DNA of 64,000 nucleotides from an uncultured Cellvibrionales bacterium (lineage in GTDB: Bacteria; Pseudomonadota; Gammaproteobacteria; Pseudomonadales; GM7GCV1). The first letter of the stretch is position 1. Every line of letters begins with the position of its first letter. The stretch spans positions 57,308-121,307 of the forward strand of contig CAJXYP010000001.1 in the NCBI GenBank assembly GCA_913063225.1. The letters run 5' to 3'. Below the pieces are notes generated by a model. It saw only the letters and a list, made by a program, of their open reading frames with translations, had not been told where the DNA came from and searched no databases. Position numbers and translations under genes: made by a program. This document shows, one piece after another, positions 6,146 through 64,000 of this stretch.

Positions 6146-7888
6146 TTATTCGGGTTTGGTATCGGCTTTTTCTATGTTGCGCGTAATTACCCATTGCTGG
6201 CTGATGGATAGAATGTTGTTGCTCACCCAATAAAGCACCAAACCAGAGGGGAACCACATAAACATAAAGGTAAACATGAACGGCATCATCTGCATTACCT
6301 TAGCCTGAGTCGGATCAGGTGGCGCAGGGTTTAGGCGCATTTGGAACCACATACTAACGCCCATAACGAGCGGCAATATAAACCAGGGGTCTTTGGAGGA
6401 TAGATCGATAATCCATCCAAAGAATGGTTCGTGACGCAATTCAACGCTTTCTCGTAGAACCCAATAAAGCGCAATAAAAACAGGCATTTGCACCAGTATA
6501 GGCAAACAGCCACCCATAGGGTTGACCTTCTCTTTTTGGTAGAGACGCATCATCTCTTGCGAGAATTGTTGTTTGTCGTCGCCATAGCGTTCTTTTAAGG
6601 CAGCGAGCTTAGGCTGCAACTTACGCATCCGCGCCATCGACTTATAGCTGGTCTCGGATAACTTAAAGAAAATCAGCTTCACTATTAGCGTGAGCAAGAT
6701 AATACAAATACCCCAGTTGGCTACGCCACCAAATACTTTGGCGTCGATACCAAAGGATTTAATTTCTCCGTTGTGGAGAAAATAAAGAATGGCGTATAGC
6801 GGTTGTGCTGCCCACCAAACCCAGCCGTAGTCTACGGTGAGATCAAGATGTTCAGAGATGGTGCGCAAGCGATATTGATCTTTGGGTCCTATGTATAAAC
6901 CCGAAGTTAAGCTGTCTTGACTGCCAGCAGCAACCTGAAGCGGTGCTTGAGTGAAGCCCACATAGTACAAGCCGTTGGCGGTAGATTGGCGCAAGTTGTA
7001 TTCCAGGGAATAGGCAGCGTCCGGAATCCAGGCCGATAGAAAGTAGTTTTGCAGTATGGCGGCCCAGCCAGAATCGACAGTTTCACGAAAGCCACCATCT
7101 TCTAAGTCGTCAAAGTCAAATTTCTTATAGCGATCTTCCGGAGTGGTAATAGCCGGCCCAACAAAGGGTTTGGCGCCCATACCACCGGTTGATGGTGGAA
7201 CGTAGTTGTCGCGTTTTAACTGCGCATAAAAAGCGGCTGACCAATTTTCGGTACTGCGGTTGTCTACTATGTATTCAACGCCAAGGTAGTAATCACCACG
7301 ATTAAGGGTAAAGCGCTTAGTAATCAGTACTTCGCCTTGAAGGTATTGCAGGTCCAGAACTACAGAATCCTCACCTTCGGAAATTTCTAAATCGGTTGTT
7401 GCTGAACTAAAGGTAGGCCGGCCTTCGTTAGTATCCGTTCCGTTGCTACCAACCAGGCCGCTCTGAGCTACATAGGTTCGGTTGCCGTTGTCGATCAGTA
7501 AATAGATAGGGTCCTGCCCGTCTATGGTTTCTAGGTGCTCCAACAATTGCGCTTCAACAATATCTCCACCTAATGGGTCGATCTGTAGTTGCAGTACATC
7601 GTTGGCAAAGCGTATTAGTGAAGTATTGGCGGGCGCCACATCTGTAAAGGGCGCGCCCGATGATGCCCCTGCCGCGAAGGCTTCAGGGATCTCTTGATTG
7701 ATGCCGTTCCCGCTTGGACCGCTTTGGGTTGGAATACCGGTAGCCCGGTTAGCGGCTATAGCTGGTTGGTTGGCTTCCGCTTGATTAGCAAGCTCGGCCT
7801 GAAAGTCGTCGTACTCTCTAAAAAGAAGCAGTAGTACAGCAACCATGCCCGCAATGAGGCAGCCGCTAATCAGATCAAATTTTTTCAA
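6146..7888 (-). CDS. yidC: Membrane protein insertase YidC
   Basis: 580-aa ORF with an N-terminal TM segment, a large periplasmic domain and a C-terminal Oxa1/YidC core ([20 protein letters not shown]). It follows the canonical rnpA-yidD-yidC-mnmE order. Confidence 0.95.
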
Positions 7889-8187: not shown

Positions 8188-8536
8188 AACGCTTTGCGAT
8201 GGTGTCGAACATATCGTCTATTAACTTTCGTAATTCTGTTGCGGAGAGATCGCCAGCACCAGGCCGGGTTAGTACCAAACAGTCTAAACCAGAGATATTG
8301 GTTTGTAAGTGACGAAAAGATTCTCGAACAATTCGTTTTACCCGATTTCTATCGTGGGCGAAACGGACAAACTTTTTACGCATCACTAATCCGAGACGCG
8401 GATGTTCTAAGTCATTAGGTTTAGCAAGAATTAACAGGGTCGGAGAGCCGACCCGAAATTGGTTCTGATCAAAAACCGCCTGAAATTGTTTCGGGGTTTT
8501 CAGTCGGTGCTGAGGGCGGAATTTAAAACGGAGCAC
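8171..8536 (-). CDS. rnpA: Ribonuclease P protein component RnpA
   Basis: 121-aa basic ORF with the RNR motif region ([15 protein letters not shown]). It lies directly downstream of rpmH. Confidence 0.92.
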
Positions 8537-8561
8537 TTCGGCAAGCGCTCGAGCGGCCTGT

Positions 8562-8696
8562 TTAGGCGCTCAGCTCTTTTCTGCCTTTCGAACGACGACG
8601 AGCTAATACCTTGCGGCCGTTAGCTGAAGCCATGCGTGCACGAAAGCCGTGAGTTCGCTTGCGGCGAATGTTGCTGGGCTGAAATGTTCTTTTCAT
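8562..8696 (-). CDS. rpmH: 50S ribosomal protein L34
   Basis: It is too short for the ORF track. Manual translation gives [44 protein letters not shown] (44 aa), a textbook L34 sequence. Confidence 0.95.
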
Positions 8697-8957: not shown

Positions 8958-9150
8958 ATATCCACAGCTTTCGGATATGAGAGTCCTCTTCTGGGGATAG
9001 TTTTCTATTGGGGTGTATTTCGTTGACTTGACTTAACGTTATGAAAATAAAAGAATAAAGTGGTTTTTTGTGGGGGGTTTACCCGGGCTCTAGGTTGTGG
9101 ATAAATACGCTGCATATTAAGACAGGGTCTCCACTGAGAAAGGTGGATAA
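8958..9150. other. DnaA-box cluster in the rpmH-dnaA spacer: best candidate for oriC and/or the dnaA autoregulatory region
   Basis: There is a perfect DnaA box TGTGGATAA at 9096-9104. One-mismatch boxes are ATATCCACA at 8958-8966 and GGTGGATAA at 9142-9150, and TATGGATAG at 9161-9169 is weaker. An AT-rich stretch lies at about 9036-9062 (atgaaaataaaagaataaag). In Pseudomonas-type genomes oriC lies in this spacer. Confidence 0.5.
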
Positions 9151-9222
9151 CTTCTCCAGCTATGGATAGGTGGGTAAACAATCAATCGGCGCAGTACGGT
9201 TAATAATAAAGAGGTCTAATCG

Positions 9223-10623
9223 GTGTCCACCCTTCTTTGGGAACAGTGCAGCAACGCACTACAAGATGAATTACCGGAACAACAGTTTAATACTTGGATT
9301 CGTCCCCTGAAGTGTCAGGAGGGCAATGGTGAGATTCGTCTATTGGCGCCAAACCGTTTTGTATTGGATTGGGTTACCGAGAAGTTCTTGGTGCGGATCA
9401 AAGCATTATTGGGAGAAGCATCGGCACAACCGCCGCGTGTAATTATTGATTTGCTTGATGCCAACCAGGAAGTGCCAGCGCTAAGCTTTGGCCCAAACCT
9501 TGGGTTGCATGCCACTGCCGCTCAATCTCAAGTCACTCCAGCGGTTCATACCGGGTCTAGGACTAGGGTAGAGCACAAAGAACATTCGTTGATGGGCACC
9601 AGCCGATCAAATTTGGATAATCAATTTACCTTTAATACCTTTGTTGAGGGTAAGTCTAACCAGCTTGCTTTGGCGGCTGCTAAGCAAGTAGCGCAAAATC
9701 CTGGCGAAGGCTACAACCCTCTATTTATATATGGGGGCGTAGGCTTGGGTAAAACCCATCTTATGCAAGCGGTTGGTAATCAACTAAAGCTGCAAAACCC
9801 TAATGCCCGAGTGTTGTATTTACACTCCGAGCGTTTTGTAGCGGATATGGTTAAAGCGCTGCAGCTGAATGCTATCAATGACTTCAAAAGATTCTATCGT
9901 TCTGCAGACGCGCTTTTGATTGATGATATTCAATTTTTTGCGAATAAAGACCGTAGCCAGGAAGAGTTTTTCCATACCTTTAATTCGTTGTTGGAATCTC
10001 GCCAGCAAATGATTATGAGTTGTGATCGTTACCCAAAAGAAATTGATGGGCTAGAAGAGCGATTAAAGTCGCGTTTTGGTTGGGGTTTGACGGTTGCAGT
10101 AGAGCCTCCTGAGCTGGAAACGCGCGTCGCAATTTTGATGAATAAGGCCCAGCAATCGAATATGGATCTGCCCACAGATGCCGCCTTTTTTATTGCGGAA
10201 AGAGTTCGATCAAATGTTAGAGAGCTAGAAGGTGCGCTTAAGAGAGTGATGGCGAGCGCTCACTTCACAGGCCAGCCTGTAACCCTGGACTTGATCAAAG
10301 AATCCCTTAAAGACTTGTTTGCTTTGCAGGACCGGTTGGTGACTGTAGATAACATTCAGAAGACGGTTGCAGCCTACTATCAAATAAAATTAAGCGACCT
10401 GATGTCGAAAAAAAGAACACGTTCTTTGGCCCGACCAAGGCAAGTGGCTATGGCATTATCTAAGTCCCTGACTAATAATAGCTTGCCTGAAATAGGCACT
10501 GCTTTTGGCGGTCGAGATCACACTACGGTATTGCATGCATGCCGTAAGATTAAAGAGCTCGAAGAGACAACCGCGGACATGCGTGAAGACCTAAAGAATT
10601 TGAACCGAACACTGAGCCATTAA
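9223..10623 (+). CDS. dnaA: Chromosomal replication initiator DnaA
   Basis: 466-aa ORF with a GTG start 8 nt after GAGG. It has the AAA+ Walker A motif [13 protein letters not shown] and the C-terminal DNA-binding signature [11 protein letters not shown]. Confidence 0.97.
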
Positions 10624-10672
10624 TTAAATACTAGGCTGTTCAGCTAGAGGCCTAAATAGGAATTATGTACCC

Positions 10673-11779
10673 ATGAAATTTTCGACCGATAGAGAGTCTT
10701 TATTAAGTGCACTGCAGTTAGTCGCAGGTGTGGTTGAAAGGCGTCAAACTTTGCCCGTATTGTCTAACGTTTTGGTGGTTGCCGGTGATGGCAAGCTAGA
10801 ACTTACTGGTACGGATCTGGAAGTTGAAATTGTCGCAAGAGTGCAGGGCATACATGTTGATTCTGACGGTTCTTCTACTATCCCGGCGCGTAAGTGGTTG
10901 GATATTTGTAAATCCTTGCCAGAAGGAAGCGATATCAGCATCCAGCAAGAAGGAGAGCAGGTAGAGATTGTTAGTGGCCGTAGCCGGTTCAAGCTTAGTA
11001 CGCTGCCAGCGAGCGAGTTTCCTAATGTAGAGGGTGGCCAAAACGTTGATGGTTTTAAAGTTAGCCGAGGCAATCTAAAGGGCATGATAGAGAAAGTCGC
11101 TTTTTCTATGGCGCACCAGGATGTTCGATACTATTTGAATGGCATGCTTATAGAGCATACATCAGAGCATTTGCGCATGGTTGCTACCGATGGACACCGT
11201 TTGGCTATGGTGACTACGAGCCACGATGGGGGCGATGTAGCGGAAACTTCTCAATCAATATTGCCGCGTAAAGGCGTAATGGAGTTGTCTAGATTGCTAG
11301 ATGATTCTGACAATGAAGTAGAAATTTCTATTGGTGCGAACCATTTTCGGCTCGTTTCCGAAGAAATGGAATTTACCTCTAAATTGGTAGACGGTAAGTT
11401 TCCCGATTATCAAAAAGTGGTTCCCCAGGGTGGAGACAAGTTTATTCTCTCGAATCGGCAGAACCTAAAGGCAGCGTTTTCTAGGGCTTCGATACTATCC
11501 AACGAGAAATACCGTGGTGTTCGTATACAGCTGAGCCAGGATTTACTGCGCATAACTGCGAATAACCCAGAGCAAGAACAGGCAGAAGAAGAGGTAGGCT
11601 TGGATTATTCTGGTGGCGAGTTAGAGATTGGCTTCAATGTAAGTTATCTAATTGATGCTATGAATGCGCTTAGCGGCGAAGATGTTCGGGTTACTCTAAG
11701 TGACTCTAACAGCAGTGCCTTGGTGGAGAATCCTCAGGATGAGACCACGAAGTACGTTGTTATGCCGATGCGGCTGTAA
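10673..11779 (+). CDS. dnaN: DNA polymerase III beta sliding clamp
   Basis: 368-aa ORF with N-terminus MKFSTDRESLLSALQLVAGVVERRQTLPVLSNVLV and C-terminal VVMPMRL. Confidence 0.97.
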   Translation: MKFSTDRESLLSALQLVAGVVERRQTLPVLSNVLVVAGDGKLELTGTDLEVEIVARVQGIHVDSDGSSTIPARKWLDICKSLPEGSDISIQQEGEQVEIVSGRSRFKLSTLPASEFPNVEGGQNVDGFKVSRGNLKGMIEKVAFSMAHQDVRYYLNGMLIEHTSEHLRMVATDGHRLAMVTTSHDGGDVAETSQSILPRKGVMELSRLLDDSDNEVEISIGANHFRLVSEEMEFTSKLVDGKFPDYQKVVPQGGDKFILSNRQNLKAAFSRASILSNEKYRGVRIQLSQDLLRITANNPEQEQAEEEVGLDYSGGELEIGFNVSYLIDAMNALSGEDVRVTLSDSNSSALVENPQDETTKYVVMPMRL

Positions 11780-11810
11780 TTCGGAACTAGCGGCCCGTTA
11801 TAATAACCGG

Positions 11811-12905
11811 ATGAAGATTCTCTCCGTAGAAATTCAAAATCTACGGAACCTTAAAAATACTTCCTTAGACTTATGCCCTCAGCACAACCTGCTGGTGGGC
11901 GCTAATGGTGCCGGGAAAACCTCGGTGCTAGAAGCGCTTCACTTGCTGGGCTACGGTCGTAGCTTTAGATCGCGACAGCCAAAAGACATTATCAGCCGAA
12001 AAGAATCCGAGCTTGTTGTTAGCTGCAGCTTTATTGATGCTGTCGGGAACGAGAGCAGGGCGGGCATTAGGAAAACTAATTCGGCGGATTCAGAAGTTCG
12101 ACTAAATGGCCAGAGCCTTAGCTCTGCAGCTGAGCTGGCGTCGAACTTCCCTGTGGTAGCTATAGAGAGTAATTCTTTTGATCTTTTAGATGGAGGCCCA
12201 AAAGAGCGCCGGCAGGCTTTGGACTGGGGAGTGTTCCACGTGGAACATTCTTTCTCTGATGTATCGAAGTCTTACCGACGTATATTGGCTCAACGCAATG
12301 CCCAGCTCAAGGTAAGCGACGATAGAGTTGACTTTATTGTTTGGAATCAAGGACTTGTAGATCTTTCCGGCCAAATAGACCAACTTCGGAAGCAATACTT
12401 TGAAAGATTCACTCCGATATTCTCAGATTTGCTACAAGAGCTGGCTCCTGAGCTTGGTTTGGTTTCATTGGGCTATCAGCGAGGCTGGAGCCAGGATAAG
12501 GATTTGGCAGACGTCTTAGATGAGCGATTCAGCAGGGACCGTTTTGAGAGACGAACTACTCGGGGCTGCCATGCGGCCGATTTGGAGTTTTTCGTTGAGG
12601 GAGTGGCTGCCAGAGACAGTCTTTCTCGCGGACAGAAAAAGATATTAGTAATTGCATTCAAGTGTGCTCAAGCAAGCCTGTATAATGCCGTCAGAGGCAA
12701 TAGCTGTGTCTTGCTGTTAGATGACCTTGCTTCCGAACTGGACGCCGATAAATGGCACAGAGTGCTAGCCGTATTAGATAGTGGGGGTTGTCAGACTCTT
12801 CAGACGTACACGGAACTGGATGATAGGGAGTTCCTTGGGTCAGAAGAGCGTGAGTTTGCAATGTTCCACGTGGAACAGGGCGAGATATCCAAAGCCAACA
12901 ATTAG
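11811..12905 (+). CDS. recF: DNA replication and repair protein RecF
   Basis: The track ORF begins at 11700 inside dnaN. The homologous N-terminus MKILSVEIQNLRNL starts at ATG 11811. It has Walker A GANGAGKTSVLEA. Confidence 0.93.
   Translation: MKILSVEIQNLRNLKNTSLDLCPQHNLLVGANGAGKTSVLEALHLLGYGRSFRSRQPKDIISRKESELVVSCSFIDAVGNESRAGIRKTNSADSEVRLNGQSLSSAAELASNFPVVAIESNSFDLLDGGPKERRQALDWGVFHVEHSFSDVSKSYRRILAQRNAQLKVSDDRVDFIVWNQGLVDLSGQIDQLRKQYFERFTPIFSDLLQELAPELGLVSLGYQRGWSQDKDLADVLDERFSRDRFERRTTRGCHAADLEFFVEGVAARDSLSRGQKKILVIAFKCAQASLYNAVRGNSCVLLLDDLASELDADKWHRVLAVLDSGGCQTLQTYTELDDREFLGSEEREFAMFHVEQGEISKANN
12232..12247. promoter_or_regulatory. parS centromere-like site (perfect 16-bp palindrome TGTTCCACGTGGAACA) inside recF
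   Basis: The sequence is an exact palindrome matching the ParB-binding parS consensus. It encodes F-H-V-E in the recF frame. Confidence 0.8.
12862..12877. promoter_or_regulatory. Second parS site (TGTTCCACGTGGAACA) near the recF 3' end
   Basis: The 16-mer is identical to the first site and lies 630 bp downstream of it. It is in the same codon phase and again encodes F-H-V-E. Confidence 0.8.
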
Positions 12906-12916
12906 ATTATGAATAG

Positions 12917-15364
<2,448 letters not shown>

Positions 15365-28718: not shown

Positions 28719-29834
28719 ATGGACGAGCTGCAATCTAAAATATTCTGGCACTTGCTGCCAAATTTCCCCAATAGCGTTTTGCTTCGAATTCAGGATGCTT
28801 TCGTAGAGCTACCTCATCCTGAATATCTAATCGCAGAACAGCGCGACTGGATGCCCGAGCTACTTCTCCAAGCAATCAACGCGGCCATACAGTCGCCTAG
28901 GGCAGAGTTTTCCCAGAGATTGGAATACGCCTCGAACTTCATATATACGAACGGTCTTTGCTTGGTAGAACGAGGAAGTAACGATTATCCAGATCTGTTA
29001 ACAGAAATACCGGATGCGCCCGCCTTGCTCTATGTATTGGGTGATTTTAAACAATTACATAAACCACAGATGGCAATTGTTGGCAGTCGCCGATGCAGCC
29101 GCTCCGGACAGCTCGATTCAAGAGCCTTCGCTCGATGTATGGCCCAAAAAGGATTTGGAATAACCAGTGGGCTCGCAATTGGTATTGATACCGCTGCTCA
29201 TCAGGGCGCTTTAGACGCCGAAGGGCTAACCAGTGCTGTTATTGGTTCAGGCTTAGACAAAATATATCCGGCGAAAAACAAATTTTTGGCGCAGGAAATA
29301 ATCGAATCGGGAGGCACGCTTGTCAGTGAGTTTCCTCCGGGAATGCCGCTTTTGCCCGAGAATTTTCCCAAGCGAAATCGCATTATTAGTGGATTGTCTG
29401 TGGCATCTCTTGTTGTGGAGGCATCAGAGAGAAGCGGCTCGTTAATCACCGCGCGCCTAGCTTTGGAGCAGGGGCGAGAGGTGCTAGTACTGCCCGGGAA
29501 TATTCATGACCCGTTAAAGCGGGGATGCCATCGGCTAATTAGAGACGGCGCCACGCTGGTTAGTTCGGCTGATCAAATGGTAGAGGAGCTCGGCAGTTTA
29601 TTAGGGTTTCAGCTCGAAATCGTTAGTGCAAAAAATGCAAAACACCCGCTGAGCGATGACCTGAGCCACAAGCATGAAGCGGTATTTGGCCATATTGAGT
29701 TTGAACCATTGGGTCTCGACGATTTACTCGAACTAACCGGGTTAGAAGTCCATGCTTTGGTAGAGATATTAACCGACCTTGAGCTGCAGGGATCGGTGCA
29801 ACGTACCCCTGAGGGAATAAAACGACTTGAATAA
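28719..29834 (+). CDS. dprA: DNA processing protein DprA (Smf)
   Basis: 371-aa ORF with the Rossmann-like DprA core (MAIVGSRRCS...GLAIGIDTAAHQGAL...SGSLITARLALEQGREV). Confidence 0.93.
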   Translation: MDELQSKIFWHLLPNFPNSVLLRIQDAFVELPHPEYLIAEQRDWMPELLLQAINAAIQSPRAEFSQRLEYASNFIYTNGLCLVERGSNDYPDLLTEIPDAPALLYVLGDFKQLHKPQMAIVGSRRCSRSGQLDSRAFARCMAQKGFGITSGLAIGIDTAAHQGALDAEGLTSAVIGSGLDKIYPAKNKFLAQEIIESGGTLVSEFPPGMPLLPENFPKRNRIISGLSVASLVVEASERSGSLITARLALEQGREVLVLPGNIHDPLKRGCHRLIRDGATLVSSADQMVEELGSLLGFQLEIVSAKNAKHPLSDDLSHKHEAVFGHIEFEPLGLDDLLELTGLEVHALVEILTDLELQGSVQRTPEGIKRLE

Positions 29835-56580: not shown

Positions 56581-56750
56581 GGTTGGTTTCTCGTCGATTA
56601 ACAGGTACTAGTGTGGATAGGCTCTCCGAGGTAGAGAGAACCCTATCCCAAAATAAGCTTACAACACCACTATATGATCTACAAAGTGGCTGTCAGCGTG
56701 GCCTAACGCAGAGTTAACCAAGTATTATCGGTAACCGGAGGCCCAACCGA

Positions 56751-59240
56751 ATGAAAAAGTCGAACATCACCATCGGGAAGCGTGATTGGTTTCTAGCCTT
56801 AGCAGTGTCAGGTCTGTTTCTGGCGCTTTCCCAATCTGCTGTTCTGCAGAGCATAGAACGGTTTGCCTACGATAGGGGTCTTAGAGGATCCTCTGCCGAA
56901 CCTAGCGATCGTATCGCCGTGATCGCCATCGATAATGAAAGCCTGAAAAATATCGGGCGCTGGCCCTGGTCGCGAGACGTGCACGCGAGCATGATTGATT
57001 TGCATCTCTAATGCTGGAGCCAAGGTGATTGGCCATACTTCCTTTTTCTTTGAGCCTCAGGATGATCCCGGTCTCGATATTGTAGAGAGCATCGGATTTT
57101 TCTTAGAAGATTTTGGATTGGCGGCCACTGATTTTGATGCAGATGGTTTTCCGGTTTCTATCCCGGGGTATGGTTTTGATGACCTGCGGTTAACGCTCGA
57201 AGCATCTAGCGCTGATTTAGATCCACTGGCGGCGGAAGACCTGTCGTTTGCTATAGAGGCTTTGGAATTCCCCCTAACGGAACTTCATCAACAGGTGTTT
57301 ACTGTTGTTGAAGCTTTGGATCTGGATCAGATACTTGCCAATAGCATTGCAGATGTTTTTCTATATTGGCCAACCCTTGGGCAATCCAGACACCCTTATG
57401 CCCGGCTTTATATCAGATAGTAGTGCGCTGTTTAATATTCAGGAAAATATACAGGCCGCGCAAAGCGGGCTGTTTCCCTTGCAGTCGGTTTTTGTCGAAA
57501 CGCCTATTGATGTTCTTGGTTCTTGGGCTTCTGGTGTCGGACATTTAAACGCGCTTCCGGATGTTGATGGTGGCATTCGATCCGAGCCATTGGTGCTTGA
57601 TTGATTTGGTGAGCCCTATCCCTCCCTATCTTTATTATTGGCGGCAAAAAGTTTGAATCTGTCCGTTGATGACATCGGTGTAAAACTCGGTGAGGGCTTT
57701 GATTTGGGGGCTTTAAGCATTGGCACGGACGATACCCTGCAAATGGACACCTTTTTCTACACTGACCAAGATGGCGTGCCTGTCTTTCAGGTTGATTCAT
57801 TTTACGATGTTATTTCCGGCAGCATTCCGGCCAGTAAATATAGCGATAAAATTGTGCTTATAGGTGCAACTGCGGTTGGTTTGGGCACTACTCAGGTAAC
57901 ACCGGTCGACCCGGCTATGACTCCGGTGGTCGCCCTTGCGCACTCGGTATCAAGTATTCTCAATGAGCATTTCTTTATAACTCCCATCTGGGGAGCCTAT
58001 GCCAGCCTTGGAGTGTTTTTACTGGTGGCGCTGTAATTACCGTCGGGTTGTTTCTCGTACTTGTAGTCACTCACTATGTACTTATGACCCAGCAGTCTAT
58101 GTGGGTGCAGTTAATGGTGCCTGCGGTACTGCTGGTGGTTGGCTATATGTTGCTAACAACCAAAAGATTTTTGGTTGCCGAAGCGGGCAAGCGCATGTCT
58201 GATATGGAGTCCTCGGAGAGCAATCGGATGCTAGGTCTCGCCTTTCAGGGGCAAGGCCAGCTGGTGCCGCGTATCAATATATCTTTGACTTCGCTCCCGG
58301 ATTCAAAGATGTGGAAGAGCGCATACAGCGCAGTAAAAAATTGGAAGAAACTATTATTCTGGGCGGTAGCGGCGGACACGCCTGGATGCGGCAGAGAAAC
58401 CTATGTTGGGCCGCTCTCAAGTTCAGAAAGAACTCGGTAAGGGTGCAATGGGTATTGTCTATTTAGGGTCAGATCCAAAAATTAACCGCACGGTGGCGAT
58501 TAAGACCATGGCGCTTTCTCAGGAATTTGAAGGCGACGAGATGGATGATGTTAAAGAGCGGTTCTTTCGCGAGGCAGAAAACGCTGATCGGCTAAATCAC
58601 CCACATATCGTTACCATTTATGACGCTGGCGAAGAGTATGATCTAGCTTATATCGCTATGGCGTTCCTCAAGGGCGCTGATTTGGCTCCTGCGACGAAAA
58701 AAGAGGCTTTGCTGCTATTTGGACAAAGTCATAGAAATCACGCTTAAACGCGCTTCTGCACTCAACTACGCCCATGCGCAAAATGTTGTGCATCGGGATA
58801 TCAAACCCGCCAATGTTATGTGCGACCCCGAATCCAATGAAATGAAAATCACAGATTTTGGTATCGCTCGTATTACCGATTCCAGCAAGGCTAAAACTGG
58901 TATGGTTTTGGGCACACCAAGATATATGTCCCCGGAACAGTTAGCCGGCAAGAAAGTAGATGGAAGGTCAGATCTATTTTCGTTAGCCGTAATGCTGTAT
59001 CAGCTGTTGACGGGCAAATTGCCATTTCAGGCGGAGTCCATGGCAACACTGATGTATAAAATTACCAATGAACCACATCCGAGAATTCGTGAAGCAAATG
59101 CCAACGTGCCTATTGAATTTGAGGACTATTTTGAAAAAGCCTTAGAAAAAGATCCTGACGAGCGATTCCAAGATGGTACTGAGATGTCGCAGGCCCTCAA
59201 AGATACCATCCGAAAAATTAAACAGCGGCAGAAAGGCTAG
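56751..59240 (+). pseudogene. CHASE2-sensor Ser/Thr protein kinase, heavily fragmented (about 6 frameshifts, 1 in-frame TGA, probable internal deletion)
   Basis: Seven consecutive track ORFs in changing frames tile one protein. The CHASE2 part reads AVIAIDNESLKNIGRWPWSRDVHASMID / AGAKVIGHTSFFFEP / GHLNALPDVDGGIRSEPL / YPSLSLLLAAKSL. TM helices follow, then SESNRMLGLAFQGQGQL. The Hanks kinase part reads GKGAMGIVYLG, AIKTM, HRDIKPANVM, DFG and GTPRYMSPE. An in-frame TGA lies at 57602-57604. Confidence 0.85.
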
Positions 59241-59253
59241 GTTGAGGTAGGGT

Positions 59254-59902
59254 TTGCTAATGGATATAAGAGATAGCATCGAAATAGTTTGCAGTACTGA
59301 TACTGGCCAGAAGCGAGACCATAACGAAGATGCGGTGGGCTCAGAAGCTAGCCTTGGACTTGTGGTGCTGGCTGATGGAATGGGCTGCTATCAGGCCGGC
59401 GAAGTTGCCAGTGCAATGGCCGTGGATATTGTACTGGAAGATATCCGGGCAAAACACGAGGAGGCTGTCGCTGGGGAAGACGAAGACCTAGATAAAACCG
59501 TTGTGATAAAGCCCTATGCCGTTGGTATGGACGGTACGGCAGCCTTTGAGGCTGCAATTCTCGAGAAAGAGAAAGAGAAAGAGAAAGAGAAAGAGAAAGA
59601 GAAAAAGCAAAAGCAAAAGCAAAAGGACGATGCCGTCACTGCTGAATTAGTTGCCAGCGGAGAAAAGCCCGCATTACTGCAGCTTTTAAATGGGCCAAAT
59701 AATGGCGCTTAATAAATCAATTACTCGCTTGGGTAAGCCGGGCGAGCAGGTTGCTGCCATTGCCAAACGCCCTCAGGGATATTTCATCATGCATTTGGGC
59801 GGCAGTACCGCCCAGCCTATTCTGAACGGCAGTAATGTCGGCACACAGGCTACGTCGCTTAAGCACGGTGATATTATTGAAGTGGGCAAGGGGTCCGTAT
59901 GA
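59254..59902 (+). pseudogene. PP2C-phosphatase N-terminal remnant joined to a low-complexity linker and an FHA-like C-terminus (frameshifted)
   Basis: Only PP2C motifs I-II are present (STDTGQKRDHNEDA; LADGMGCYQAGEVAS), and the rest of the roughly 240-aa fold is missing. An (EK)7(KQ)3 linker follows. A +1 shift near 59700 leads into LNKSITRLGKPGEQVAAIAKRPQGYFIMHLGG...GDIIEVG, which looks like an FHA domain. Confidence 0.6.
59563..59624 (+). repeat. Hexanucleotide microsatellite (GAGAAA)7 followed by (GCAAAA)3
   Basis: Seven perfect GAGAAA units span 59563-59604 and three GCAAAA units span 59607-59624. In frame they encode EKEKEKEKEKEKEK-KQKQKQ. Confidence 0.95.
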
Positions 59903-59973
59903 AAATTATGATTCCCAGCTAGAGGGGACCATCTAGAGCTCGACATAACTAGTTCTAATTAGACATGTGCCCC

Positions 59974-61924: not shown

Positions 61925-62998
61925 CTAAAGAACAGCCAGTAGCTGCTCTTCATCAAAGTCATTAATCACTTCTGCCCGGCCAATTTGCTTTAACAAGATC
62001 AACCGAAGCTGTCCGCGGGTTACCTTTTTATCGTGAGACATAAGGCTGCGCATTTTTTCCGCGCTAATGTCCTGAGGTGCTTCCAAAGGTAAGTTAGCGG
62101 CGCTTAAAAGCGATTCGATGCGCGTCATATCAGTGGAATCCAGCCAGCCCATATTCTGCGACATGCGTGCAGCCATCGCCATACCAGCACCCACGGCTTC
62201 ACCATGTAACCAGTGTTTGTAGTGCTGTGCGGCTTCAATGGCGTGGCCGAAAGTATGGCCGAGGTTCAAGATGGCTCTTAGTCCCTGTTCCGTTTCATCG
62301 GCTGATACCACCTCTGCTTTGGTTCTGCAGGAAACTAGTATTGTTTCGGCCAGACAGTCAGGGTCTCTCGCCATAATCGCTTCTATGTTTTGTTCGAGCC
62401 AGCCAAAGAATGCGTTGTCACGGATAAGGCCATATTTGATAACCTCTGCCATACCCGCTGAAAATTCCCGTTCGGGTAGAGTTTCCAAAGTGGTCAAATC
62501 TATATATACCCCTTTTGGCTGGTAGAACGCACCAATCATATTTTTGCCAAGAGGGTGATTTACGGCCGTCTTTCCGCCGACCGAAGAATCAACTTGAGAA
62601 AGTAAGGTGGTTGGGATTTGAATGAAATCTACGCCGCGCTGGTAGGTTGCAGCAGCAAAACCCACGGTATCTCCAATAACGCCTCCCCCTAGTGCGATTA
62701 GAATGCAGGACCGATCGTAGTGGCTTTCCAAAAGCCGGTCATATATTTTTTCAAGGGTATTGATGGTTTTGTACTGCTCGCCATCGGGCAGGATTAGTTG
62801 ATCTAGCTCTACTTCCAACGCTGCACCAGACAGACAAGATTTGAGCCGATCCAAATATAGTGGAGCGATAGTTTCATTGCTAATGATTAGTGCGCGACGT
62901 CCGCGCACCTGTTCGCTAAGGCTTGCGTCATTCCAAGCCTCTGGGCTAATAACTATTGGGTAGGATCTGGCGCCGAGTTCAAGTGTCAGCTTTTTCAA
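61925..62998 (-). CDS. aroB: 3-dehydroquinate synthase
   Basis: 357-aa ORF with a TTG start 8 nt after GAGGA. It has GGGVIGDTVGFAAATYQRG and metal ligands in LNLGHTFGHAIE. Confidence 0.95.
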   Translation of the reverse strand: MKKLTLELGARSYPIVISPEAWNDASLSEQVRGRRALIISNETIAPLYLDRLKSCLSGAALEVELDQLILPDGEQYKTINTLEKIYDRLLESHYDRSCILIALGGGVIGDTVGFAAATYQRGVDFIQIPTTLLSQVDSSVGGKTAVNHPLGKNMIGAFYQPKGVYIDLTTLETLPEREFSAGMAEVIKYGLIRDNAFFGWLEQNIEAIMARDPDCLAETILVSCRTKAEVVSADETEQGLRAILNLGHTFGHAIEAAQHYKHWLHGEAVGAGMAMAARMSQNMGWLDSTDMTRIESLLSAANLPLEAPQDISAEKMRSLMSHDKKVTRGQLRLILLKQIGRAEVINDFDEEQLLAVL

Positions 62999-63262
62999 TC
63001 CGTGTGTCCTCTAACTCGAGTGTTTCGTGAAGGATTTGGATTTTAGGGGAAATTTGGCTAAGCAGTTTGGATTGTCCTCCGCAGAGCCATAGTCGAAACT
63101 ATTGCCCAATGATGATAGTTCAAAATGCGACGTCAAATTTTTCCTAAAACCAAATAGAAATATGAGCGAGAGAAACCCTAACACGCATAAACCGCGTAGG
63201 ATTTTGATGTTTTTGTATGACTGTTCATGTGCTGTCCGTTTTCGTGAAATACTCGGGTTACA

Positions 63263-63799
63263 CTAAAATTTATTTGGAAATTCTTCTTCAAGCTTTGCGT
63301 AAACCGCCGCTGTCATAGAGTTAGGAGACTCTCGATCTGACGAGGATAACACTAGATCAGCTACCTCCCGATATAGTGGCTCACGTTTTTTCAGAATGTC
63401 TTGAATGGTGGCTTTAGGATTATGCACTTGCAAGAGAGGACGGCCAGAGTCGTGCCGAACCCTTTGATATATTTGATCCGCGGTAGCTGAAAGGTATACC
63501 ACTACACCAGCTCCGCTAATTAATTCCCGGTTTTTCTCAGATATTACTGCACCGCCGCCAGTGGCAAGTAGAATGCCTGACATGGAACATAGCTCGGATA
63601 GAATTTCGGTTTCGCGTGTTCGAAAACCACTTTCTCCTTCGATATCAAATATCCAAGGTATATCTGCGCCGCATCTGGACTCAAGTTCGCGGTCAGAATC
63701 TAGAAAGCTTAAGCCCAGCTTTTCGGCAAGCAATTTCCCGACAGAGGTCTTGCCAGCCCCCATCGGACCAACAAGGACCAAATTGGCCCCTGCGTTCAT
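63263..63799 (-). CDS. aroK: Shikimate kinase
   Basis: It has Walker A motif LVGPMGAGKTSVGK. The start is placed at ATG 63799 (MNAGANLVLVGP...), giving an E. coli-like length. The track ORF extends to 63847. Confidence 0.9.
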   Translation of the reverse strand: MNAGANLVLVGPMGAGKTSVGKLLAEKLGLSFLDSDRELESRCGADIPWIFDIEGESGFRTRETEILSELCSMSGILLATGGGAVISEKNRELISGAGVVVYLSATADQIYQRVRHDSGRPLLQVHNPKATIQDILKKREPLYREVADLVLSSSDRESPNSMTAAVYAKLEEEFPNKF

Positions 63800-64000
63800 T
63801 GAGTTGTTAGGCTGTCGTTCAGAGCGTCTATAGCCTCCTTGCGACAAGCGGCTAATAAAATCTTTACTTGCTCGGAGTTTTCTTCCTGCTCAATAACGGT
63901 AAAGTCGACCGCGACTTCATCAAGGGAGTATGGGATATATTGTTCCGCTTCCATTAGAAGCTGGGTTTCCATCTCATCGCCTGTGAGATCACCGGGCATT
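63796..64000 (-). pseudogene. pilM: Truncated pilM (type IV pilus assembly ATPase-like protein) stump, ending at an ATGA overlap with aroK; its 5' part lies outside the window
   Basis: The translation ...GDEMETQLLMEAEQYIPYSLDEVAVDFTVIEQEENSEQVKILLAACRKEAIDALNDSLTTQ* matches the central PilM signature (EADQYIPYPLEEVAIDF...VLLAACRKE) at about residue 110-165 of a roughly 350-aa protein. It then stops, and no pilN/O/P/Q follows before aroK. Confidence 0.7.

Follow-up and report, generated by a model that had tools for sequence, protein, structure and literature searches.

A pilM-pilQ remnant before aroK in an uncultured Cellvibrionales bacterium: a probable translated leader left by a deletion of about 4.45 kb

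What kind of gene is an open reading frame (ORF) that resembles the pilus assembly gene pilM, stops near the middle of that gene, and runs directly into aroK? This question is raised by the right-hand edge of a 64,000-nucleotide stretch of DNA (here, the window; contig CAJXYP010000001.1) from an uncultured Cellvibrionales bacterium, where such an ORF occupies positions 63796-64000 on the minus strand, ahead of the shikimate pathway genes aroK and aroB. The original prediction, made from the sequence letters, read it as a pilM stump left by a precise deletion of some 4-5 kb of pilus assembly and secretin genes, with aroK kept translationally coupled to the stump. According to our analysis, the alignments with intact relatives show the ORF to be the remnant of a single ~4.45-kb deletion in an ancestral locus in which ponA diverges from pilMNOPQ-aroK-aroB.

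The portion of the ORF that lies in the window (translation of 63796-63999, minus strand: MPGDLTGDEMETQLLMEAEQYIPYSLDEVAVDFTVIEQEENSEQVKILLAACRKEAIDALNDSLTTQ, followed by the stop codon) carries the PilM signature noticed at the outset and matches the Pfam family PilM_2 (PF11104) with an E value of 1.6e-18 at profile positions 81-144 of 340. It is the 3' part of a longer ORF whose start lies beyond the window end, opposite ponA, and the sequence on that side was taken from the source contig (L001, ENA ERZ534234 NODE_1, 1.98 Mb). This extension past position 64000, which the original prediction had called for, recovered the 5' half of pilM: the whole ORF has 161 codons, begins with an ATG (MQIPLFSKNS...), and starts 118 bp from the divergent ponA, which encodes penicillin-binding protein 1A. 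In an alignment to solved structures, it matches residues 6-157 of Pseudomonas aeruginosa PilM (5EOX, a 357-residue chain; E=3.9e-36), so that residues 1-154 of the ORF correspond to the N-terminal half only of the 354-residue P. aeruginosa protein. Both matches place the sequence in the PilM family. The full-length two-domain actin-like fold of PilM (about 350 amino acids [aa]) is not present in the ORF, nor is the neighbor order of pilM, in which pilN and then pilO, pilP, and pilQ follow, since aroK comes directly after it. The native start of pilM, with its Shine-Dalgarno motif, has been retained, and so has the conserved intergenic region upstream. This ponA-pilM region and codons 1-94 are seen on L001 (8600-9000; the full ORF is found on this contig), past the end of the window, while the pilM-derived part inside the window, codons 95-153, to which the PilM_2 match and the 5EOX alignment apply, spans 63823..64000 (minus strand). 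The frame ends 12 codons past a CRKE motif with a TGA at 63796-63798, which overlaps the ATG of aroK (63797-63799) as ATGA (63796-63799), just as had been read from the sequence.

Both ends of the deletion could be located by comparison of the DNA with two close relatives, L089 and L091, which were found by a metagenome scan with the stump and whose PilM N termini are 82-83% identical to it. At the same locus they show the Pseudomonas-type order that had been assumed as the ancestral one, namely pilM (354 aa), pilN, pilO, pilP, and pilQ (716 and 714 aa, respectively), then aroK. Their PilM reads CRKEGID(S/A)LTEMVEQ, where the window reads CRKEAIDAL and passes immediately to NDSLTTQ and the stop codon (in DNA, ATA GAC GCT CTG, then AAC GAC AGC CTA ACA ACT CAA TGA). 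The PilQ proteins of the two relatives end in ...ITPKILNDSLSTQ or ...ILNDNITTQ, and in both the TGA of pilQ overlaps the ATG of aroK; ILND(S/N)(L/I)xxQ is also the C terminus of nine more PilQ proteins from the clade, in which the form ITPKILNDSL(S/T)(T/A)Q occurs. Because the clade PilQ proteins have matching C termini, the NDSLTTQ tail of the window ORF (63796..63819 with its TGA, minus strand) is of pilQ origin, and the ORF consists of pilM codons 1-154 and, in the same frame, the 7 terminal codons of pilQ, with both breakpoints identifiable. The junction falls at the Leu154 codon CTG (63820..63822, minus strand), and a Leu codon common to pilM (IDAL/T) and pilQ (KIL/N) at this point provides about 3-4 nucleotides (nt) of microhomology. 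Counted from coordinates, the gap corresponds to 4,452 bp of L089 or 4,450 bp of L091, a length within the range that had been expected, and comprises the 3' half of pilM, all of pilN, pilO, and pilP, and pilQ except for 7 codons. The description of a precise deletion scar is thereby borne out, down to pilM codon 154 and the seventh codon from the end of pilQ, and so is that of a truncated pilM; what needs correction is that the last 7 codons of the stump are not pilM but the conserved C-terminal tail of PilQ. The ATGA before aroK is likewise the native overlap of the pilQ stop and the aroK start in this clade, inherited by the fusion. The correct annotation of the ORF should be a pilM'::'pilQ fusion pseudogene and not PilM, given that it fails both full length and a PilN partner.

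Could the junction instead be an assembly artefact, or the ORF a paralogous pilM fragment in a genome that holds its true pilMNOPQ operon elsewhere? The data are derived from metagenomes and the window ends within the ORF, which keeps the question legitimate. However, DNA that is 100% identical over 5-14.5 kb across the junction is found in four assemblies (ENA ERZ534234, Logan SRR5590986, JGI 3300006947, and JGI 3300027704), and since four assemblies agree in this way the junction is not an assembly artefact. The locus is also the orthologous one, flanked by ponA and by aroK-aroB. By tblastn, aroK follows the pilM start at a distance of 3.6-7.3 kb, in most cases about 5 kb, in 58 of the 82 loci fetched, and ponA diverges from pilM there; the distance in the window is 482 bp. 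The same synteny, with ponA/mrcA upstream on the other strand and aroK and aroB downstream of the pil operon, has been described (PMC7545093). Intact versions at the orthologous position with the same flanks were found in L089, L091, and a further relative, L144. A paralogous fragment would moreover not be expected to carry the PilQ C-terminal tail at its junction. With the proteins of relatives as tblastn queries, PilN, PilO, PilP, and PilQ gave no match in the window or in L001, and among the best 120 homologues of the L089 PilQ, which reach down to about 49% identity, none lies on the organism's 1,984,433-bp or 2,330,155-bp contigs. The explanation by artefact or paralogy is largely refuted, and we assign it next to no probability. 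No deletions at the pilMNOPQ-aroK locus were described in the literature found for pilQ, aroK, and pilM together. As an observation apart, L001, L002, L146, and L147, which come from different accessions, are completely identical over as much as 14.5 kb, and this points to a population that is clonal or to source data that overlap; the closest AroB proteins among the GTDB representative matches listed are 53-59% identical.

With these genes the bacterium would have lost the PilM/N/O/P inner-membrane alignment complex and the PilQ secretin, and we infer that it makes no type IVa pilus and takes up no DNA through one. The prediction is a bacterium without type IVa pili that neither twitches nor imports DNA by way of pili and is insensitive to pilus-specific phages. 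The window retains dprA (28719-29834) despite the loss of the pilus secretin.

What, then, has the deletion left in front of aroK? Both downstream genes are present and intact, as originally stated: aroK (63263-63799, minus strand) encodes a shikimate kinase of 178 aa (Pfam SKI, E=1.4e-49) that is 73-85% identical to the AroK proteins of clade relatives, and aroB (61925-62998, minus strand) encodes a 3-dehydroquinate synthase of 357 aa (Pfam DHQ_synthase and DHQS_C) and has its own Shine-Dalgarno sequence, AGAGGA. Both genes appear on a list of those essential in Acinetobacter baylyi, where they lie within a type IV pilus operon (PMC5542475). On inspection of motifs, the 25 nt that precede the ATG of aroK in the window, L089, L095, and L087 contain neither AGGA nor GGAG nor GAGG, and Shine-Dalgarno motifs were present for aroB, pilN, and the stump. 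An overlap of the upstream ORF with aroK, in the form of ATGA or TAATG, is the rule in the window's clade and in neighboring families, while many other gammaproteobacteria have a spacer before aroK instead, often with a terminator-like hairpin. The two features of a translationally coupled pair, i.e., a clade-conserved stop/start overlap and a downstream gene without a ribosome-binding site of its own, are both found here. For an aroK that lies within the pil operon and lacks a Shine-Dalgarno motif, dependence on the pilM promoter and on restart at the ATGA is probable; the ponA-pilM intergenic region is kept in all alleles of the locus described below. Transcription of aroK-aroB would accordingly start at the pilM promoter and run through the remnant, ribosomes translating the remnant would terminate at the ATGA and reinitiate on aroK, and what would be tolerated, or retained, in the fused ORF is a translated leader and not a pilus protein. 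We consider it likely that the remnant is non-functional as a pilus protein and that it serves, after the ~4.45-kb deletion, only as a translated leader for aroK-aroB.

Relatives of the bacterium carry further alleles of this locus, and they bear on that reading. In a neighbor-joining tree of PonA, AroK, and AroB, the window groups as (window,(L095,(L083,L087))) with 100% bootstrap support, the intact L144 is sister to this group at 86%, (L089,L090,L091) has 100% support, L145 falls outside these, and the intact L092 and L093 lie further out. In L083, L087, and L088, pilM is cut after the same Leu154 as in the window, one Leu codon and a TGA follow, and the stump, of 156 or 160 codons, overlaps aroK as ATGA. 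Because L095, the sister of L087, still has a whole pilM, the truncations of the window and of L087 are separate events. In L095 itself, codons 1-82 of pilN are joined in frame to a pilQ tail (ADMID/SLSAQ, then the stop codon) that overlaps aroK as ATGA, and pilM is full-length but frameshifted by an 11-bp tandem duplication. In L090 (2958-4142, on a contig with a coverage of only 4.5x), the aroK ATG has become ACG and lies within a 394-aa ORF that fuses PilM residues 1-215 in frame to AroK, which is apparently made there only with a 215-residue PilM extension. In L145 (7668-10151), only the first 8 codons of pilM are left, and they run out of frame into the 3' third of pilP, which has an in-frame TAG; an intact pilQ (716 aa), ATGA-coupled to aroK, remains as an orphan secretin gene next to ponA. 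Two alleles come from the Porticoccaceae: a metagenome-assembled genome (MAG) of Porticoccus, L011, has a 138-codon pilM stump (9000-9416) whose TAA lies 8 nt inside aroK, and a second MAG of this family, L010, has lost all pil sequence (8387-8606), so that ponA is 219 bp from aroK and no leading ORF exists; in L004, of the same family, the locus is intact. By our count, these alleles amount to at least five deletion events in the window's clade (at least four alleles besides that of the window) plus two in the Porticoccaceae. One more candidate stump, L044, was rejected, as its pilQ is intact and the flagged ORF is a chance frame.

The geometry of these deletions bears on the choice between a translated leader and a neutral scar, in which the fused ORF would have no role in aroK expression and the ATGA and the open frame would be by-products of a deletion that happened near an essential aroK. 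Deletion bias in a decaying genome could well produce such a scar, and the same window holds a PP2C'::'FHA deletion scar, a split Ser/Thr kinase, and CHASE2 fragments; the statistics of the frame are marginal, and L010 does with no trace of pilM at all. On the other hand, the right-hand ends of four or five independent deletions cluster at the aroK ATG, none more than about 21 nt away, in contrast to the scattered left-hand ends, and in every allele with a junction abutting aroK an ORF reads up to or through the aroK start, the sole clade allele whose junction does not abut aroK, that of L145, being out of frame. The want of a Shine-Dalgarno motif at aroK and the L090 allele, where AroK can come only from the PilM-AroK fusion, also speak against a scar without consequence, and we hold this explanation to be improbable, though the less remote of the two rivals that concern the role of the remnant. 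Extended to the clade and the Porticoccaceae as a whole, the same geometry allows a broader and more tentative proposal, which we would put at a little under an even chance: that pilMNOPQ has been lost in at least five to seven independent collapses, that the geometry of each is set by an operon-embedded aroK devoid of a Shine-Dalgarno motif, and that the only deletions to survive are those translated into aroK, be it by the native stop overlap, by a new stop that overlaps aroK, or by direct fusion of PilM to AroK.

Two independent alleles, those of the window and L087, are cut after the same pilM codon, and the pilM sequence ATA GAC GCT CTG AC resembles the pilQ tail AAC GAC AGC CTA AC; pilM codon 154 may be a hot spot of deletion or recombination. 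Elsewhere in pilM, the stretch encoding LAQTLRKAV contains the 11-bp duplication in L095 (7181-7245) and a 12-bp in-frame tandem duplication in L087 (10001-10483, reading LRKVLRKAL), and may be a slippage hot spot.

Might the 161-residue product still be selected as a protein, i.e., as a functional half-PilM formed by the N-terminal half of the actin-like fold, with a role apart from the pilus? Its frame is open and its native start is kept, and the first protein search returned several short PilMs of 137-187 aa. Between the window and L087, the proportions of nonsynonymous (pN) and synonymous (pS) differences in the stump are 0.10 and 0.78, as in bona fide genes. However, synonymous sites are saturated in this comparison and the two truncations are independent, so the low pN/pS mostly reflects the era of the full-length pilM, and purifying selection on the stump, as it appeared from this pair, was rejected after the tree had shown the truncations to be independent. 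The unsaturated comparison of L095 with L087 gave a pN of 0.066 and a pS of 0.070 for the pilM N terminus (pN/pS about 0.94), as against 0.011 and 0.104 for ponA, 0.025 and 0.129 for aroK, and 0.037 and 0.235 for aroB. The pilM remnant of this sister lineage evolves neutrally, with a pN/pS of about 1, and three-point arithmetic on pN assigns most of the nonsynonymous change to the L087 tip. The frameshift in the pilM of L095 likewise speaks against a need for the remnant as a protein. Neither do the short homologues form one family: they end at differing codons (about 131, 154, or 215), and the supposed conserved family of 137-187 aa was rejected on inspection. P0006 (L084) and P0007 (L086) are frameshifted full-length genes in pil operons. 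P0002 and P0005 were discarded because they end in CLLYTSPSPRD... and LSLIHI, which we take to be translated sequencing adapter, and short homologues in metagenome protein sets may thus be artefacts. The remaining ones are independent truncations. The original prediction would have failed if the short ORF were a distinct protein conserved in relatives, and this is not what the short PilMs are; nor, as shown above, is the ORF a paralogous fragment beside an operon elsewhere, the other case against it, in view of the synteny, the PilQ tail, and the PilQ search. As the C-terminal half is missing and the partner pilN is absent, we regard a functional half-PilM as very unlikely.

Several points weigh against the remnant being a mere translated leader of aroK, or limit how firmly this can be held. 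The search for pilus genes covered the window, L001, and the best 120 PilQ homologues only, for a genome of roughly 2.0-2.3 Mb, and is a weak negative. On the window branch, three-point arithmetic gives a pilM/ponA pN ratio of about 0.66, to be compared with 0.5-0.77 among L089, L090, and L091, which have a full-length or longer pilM, so that pilM is not accelerated relative to ponA and no relaxed selection is visible, a fact that also suits a half-PilM; either the window deletion is recent or some constraint persists. The four assemblies of the window lineage are identical and offer zero within-lineage diversity for a ratio of nonsynonymous to synonymous substitution rates (dN/dS). A sigma-70 scan detected no consensus promoter upstream of the stump nor inside it. 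The frame statistics are modest: with only three alleles that use the native stop, the chance expectation from random frames is (1/3)^3 = 0.04, and two of the three possible frames could bring ribosomes to aroK. As regards the predicted coupling of aroK to the stump, the preserved ATGA and the lack of an aroK Shine-Dalgarno motif stand, while the coupling itself, like the dependence on the pilM promoter, is deduced from sequence.

Other features of the locus were inspected in the same way. Between aroB and aroK, the window has a lineage-specific spacer of 264 bp (62999..63262), where comparison with relatives shows 19 bp in L095 and an overlap of aroK and aroB in L087 and L089; no second copy of it occurs in the window or in any fetched locus. 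The spacer contains a 57-aa ORF (63011-63184, minus strand), a promoter-like TTGACG-16-CATCAT, an imperfect 44-nt inverted repeat (63036-63079 and 63111-63154), and TTTCGTGAA direct repeats near both ends. A promoter and terminator scan of the locus yielded nothing above shuffled expectation, and a scan of the whole window against Rfam at gathering thresholds yielded no match.

Further signs of gene decay are found to the left of aroB. The second deletion scar (59254-59919, plus strand) begins as a PP2C phosphatase (278 aa in L144), of which residues 1-70 are kept, and continues as the C-terminal portion (about residues 94-235) of the neighboring FHA-domain protein; the join is marked by EKEKEK.../KQKQKQK repeats and a frameshift, with ORFs at 59254-59712 and 59690-59902. 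At about 56750-59240 (plus strand), two overlapping ORFs (58403-58747 and 58719-59240) each encode part of a Ser/Thr protein kinase, and the coding sequence of a CHASE2 sensor domain is in at least three fragments; the four assemblies carry identical DNA here, so that real pseudogenes are the probable explanation. L087 has lost everything between cca and argS. The apparent absence of rpmE between priA and ponA in L001 was rejected, as the gene is present and merely uncalled. At the other end of the window lies the chromosomal origin neighborhood, with yidC (6146-7888, minus strand) and dnaA-dnaN-recF-gyrB (9223-15364). Over the first 4 kb the GC skew stays close to zero, and it is positive from there on.

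If the proposed constraint on deletions is true, the locus is a natural experiment in how coupling to an essential downstream gene constrains the loss of an accessory operon during genome streamlining. The allele series is a compact, sequence-resolved example of a downstream aroK limiting the routes by which the operon upstream can be deleted, and for annotation it accounts for short "PilM" ORFs, and even a PilM-AroK fusion, in metagenomes.

The system closest to the window is the locus of Pseudomonas, Vibrio, and Acinetobacter, in which ponA (mrcA) diverges from pilMNOPQ-aroK-aroB. The flanking genes, their orientation, and the orthologous part of pilM are alike, and the window differs in having lost everything from the 3' half of pilM to pilQ and in the fusion of pilM to the pilQ tail. 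In Enterobacterales, a cryptic or decaying pilus operon, hofMNOPQ, stands ahead of aroK-aroB; in four loci of this order (L031, L040, L049, and L072), ponA is about 4.1 kb from aroK, as judged by distance only, at the same locus as in the window, in which, by contrast, the pilM::pilQ remnant that separates the pilM start from aroK is only 482 bp long. ATGA stop/start overlaps occur in translationally coupled gene pairs such as those of the Escherichia coli trp operon, and the window resembles these in its 4-nt overlap and in a downstream gene without an upstream Shine-Dalgarno motif, but its upstream partner is a gene remnant and not a functional gene, and its coupling is a predicted one. With the scars of streamlined or host-restricted genomes, it shares a microhomology-flanked deletion, nearby scars and split genes, and a genome of about 2.0-2.3 Mb, whereas its remnant is an open in-frame ORF placed so as to preserve the expression signals of a downstream gene that is essential in A. 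baylyi. Microhomology-flanked gene loss and a translated remnant before a coupled gene are known kinds; the window instance and the parallel allele series are new, and the deletion is an ordinary process, unusually cleanly documented, and not a new molecular system.

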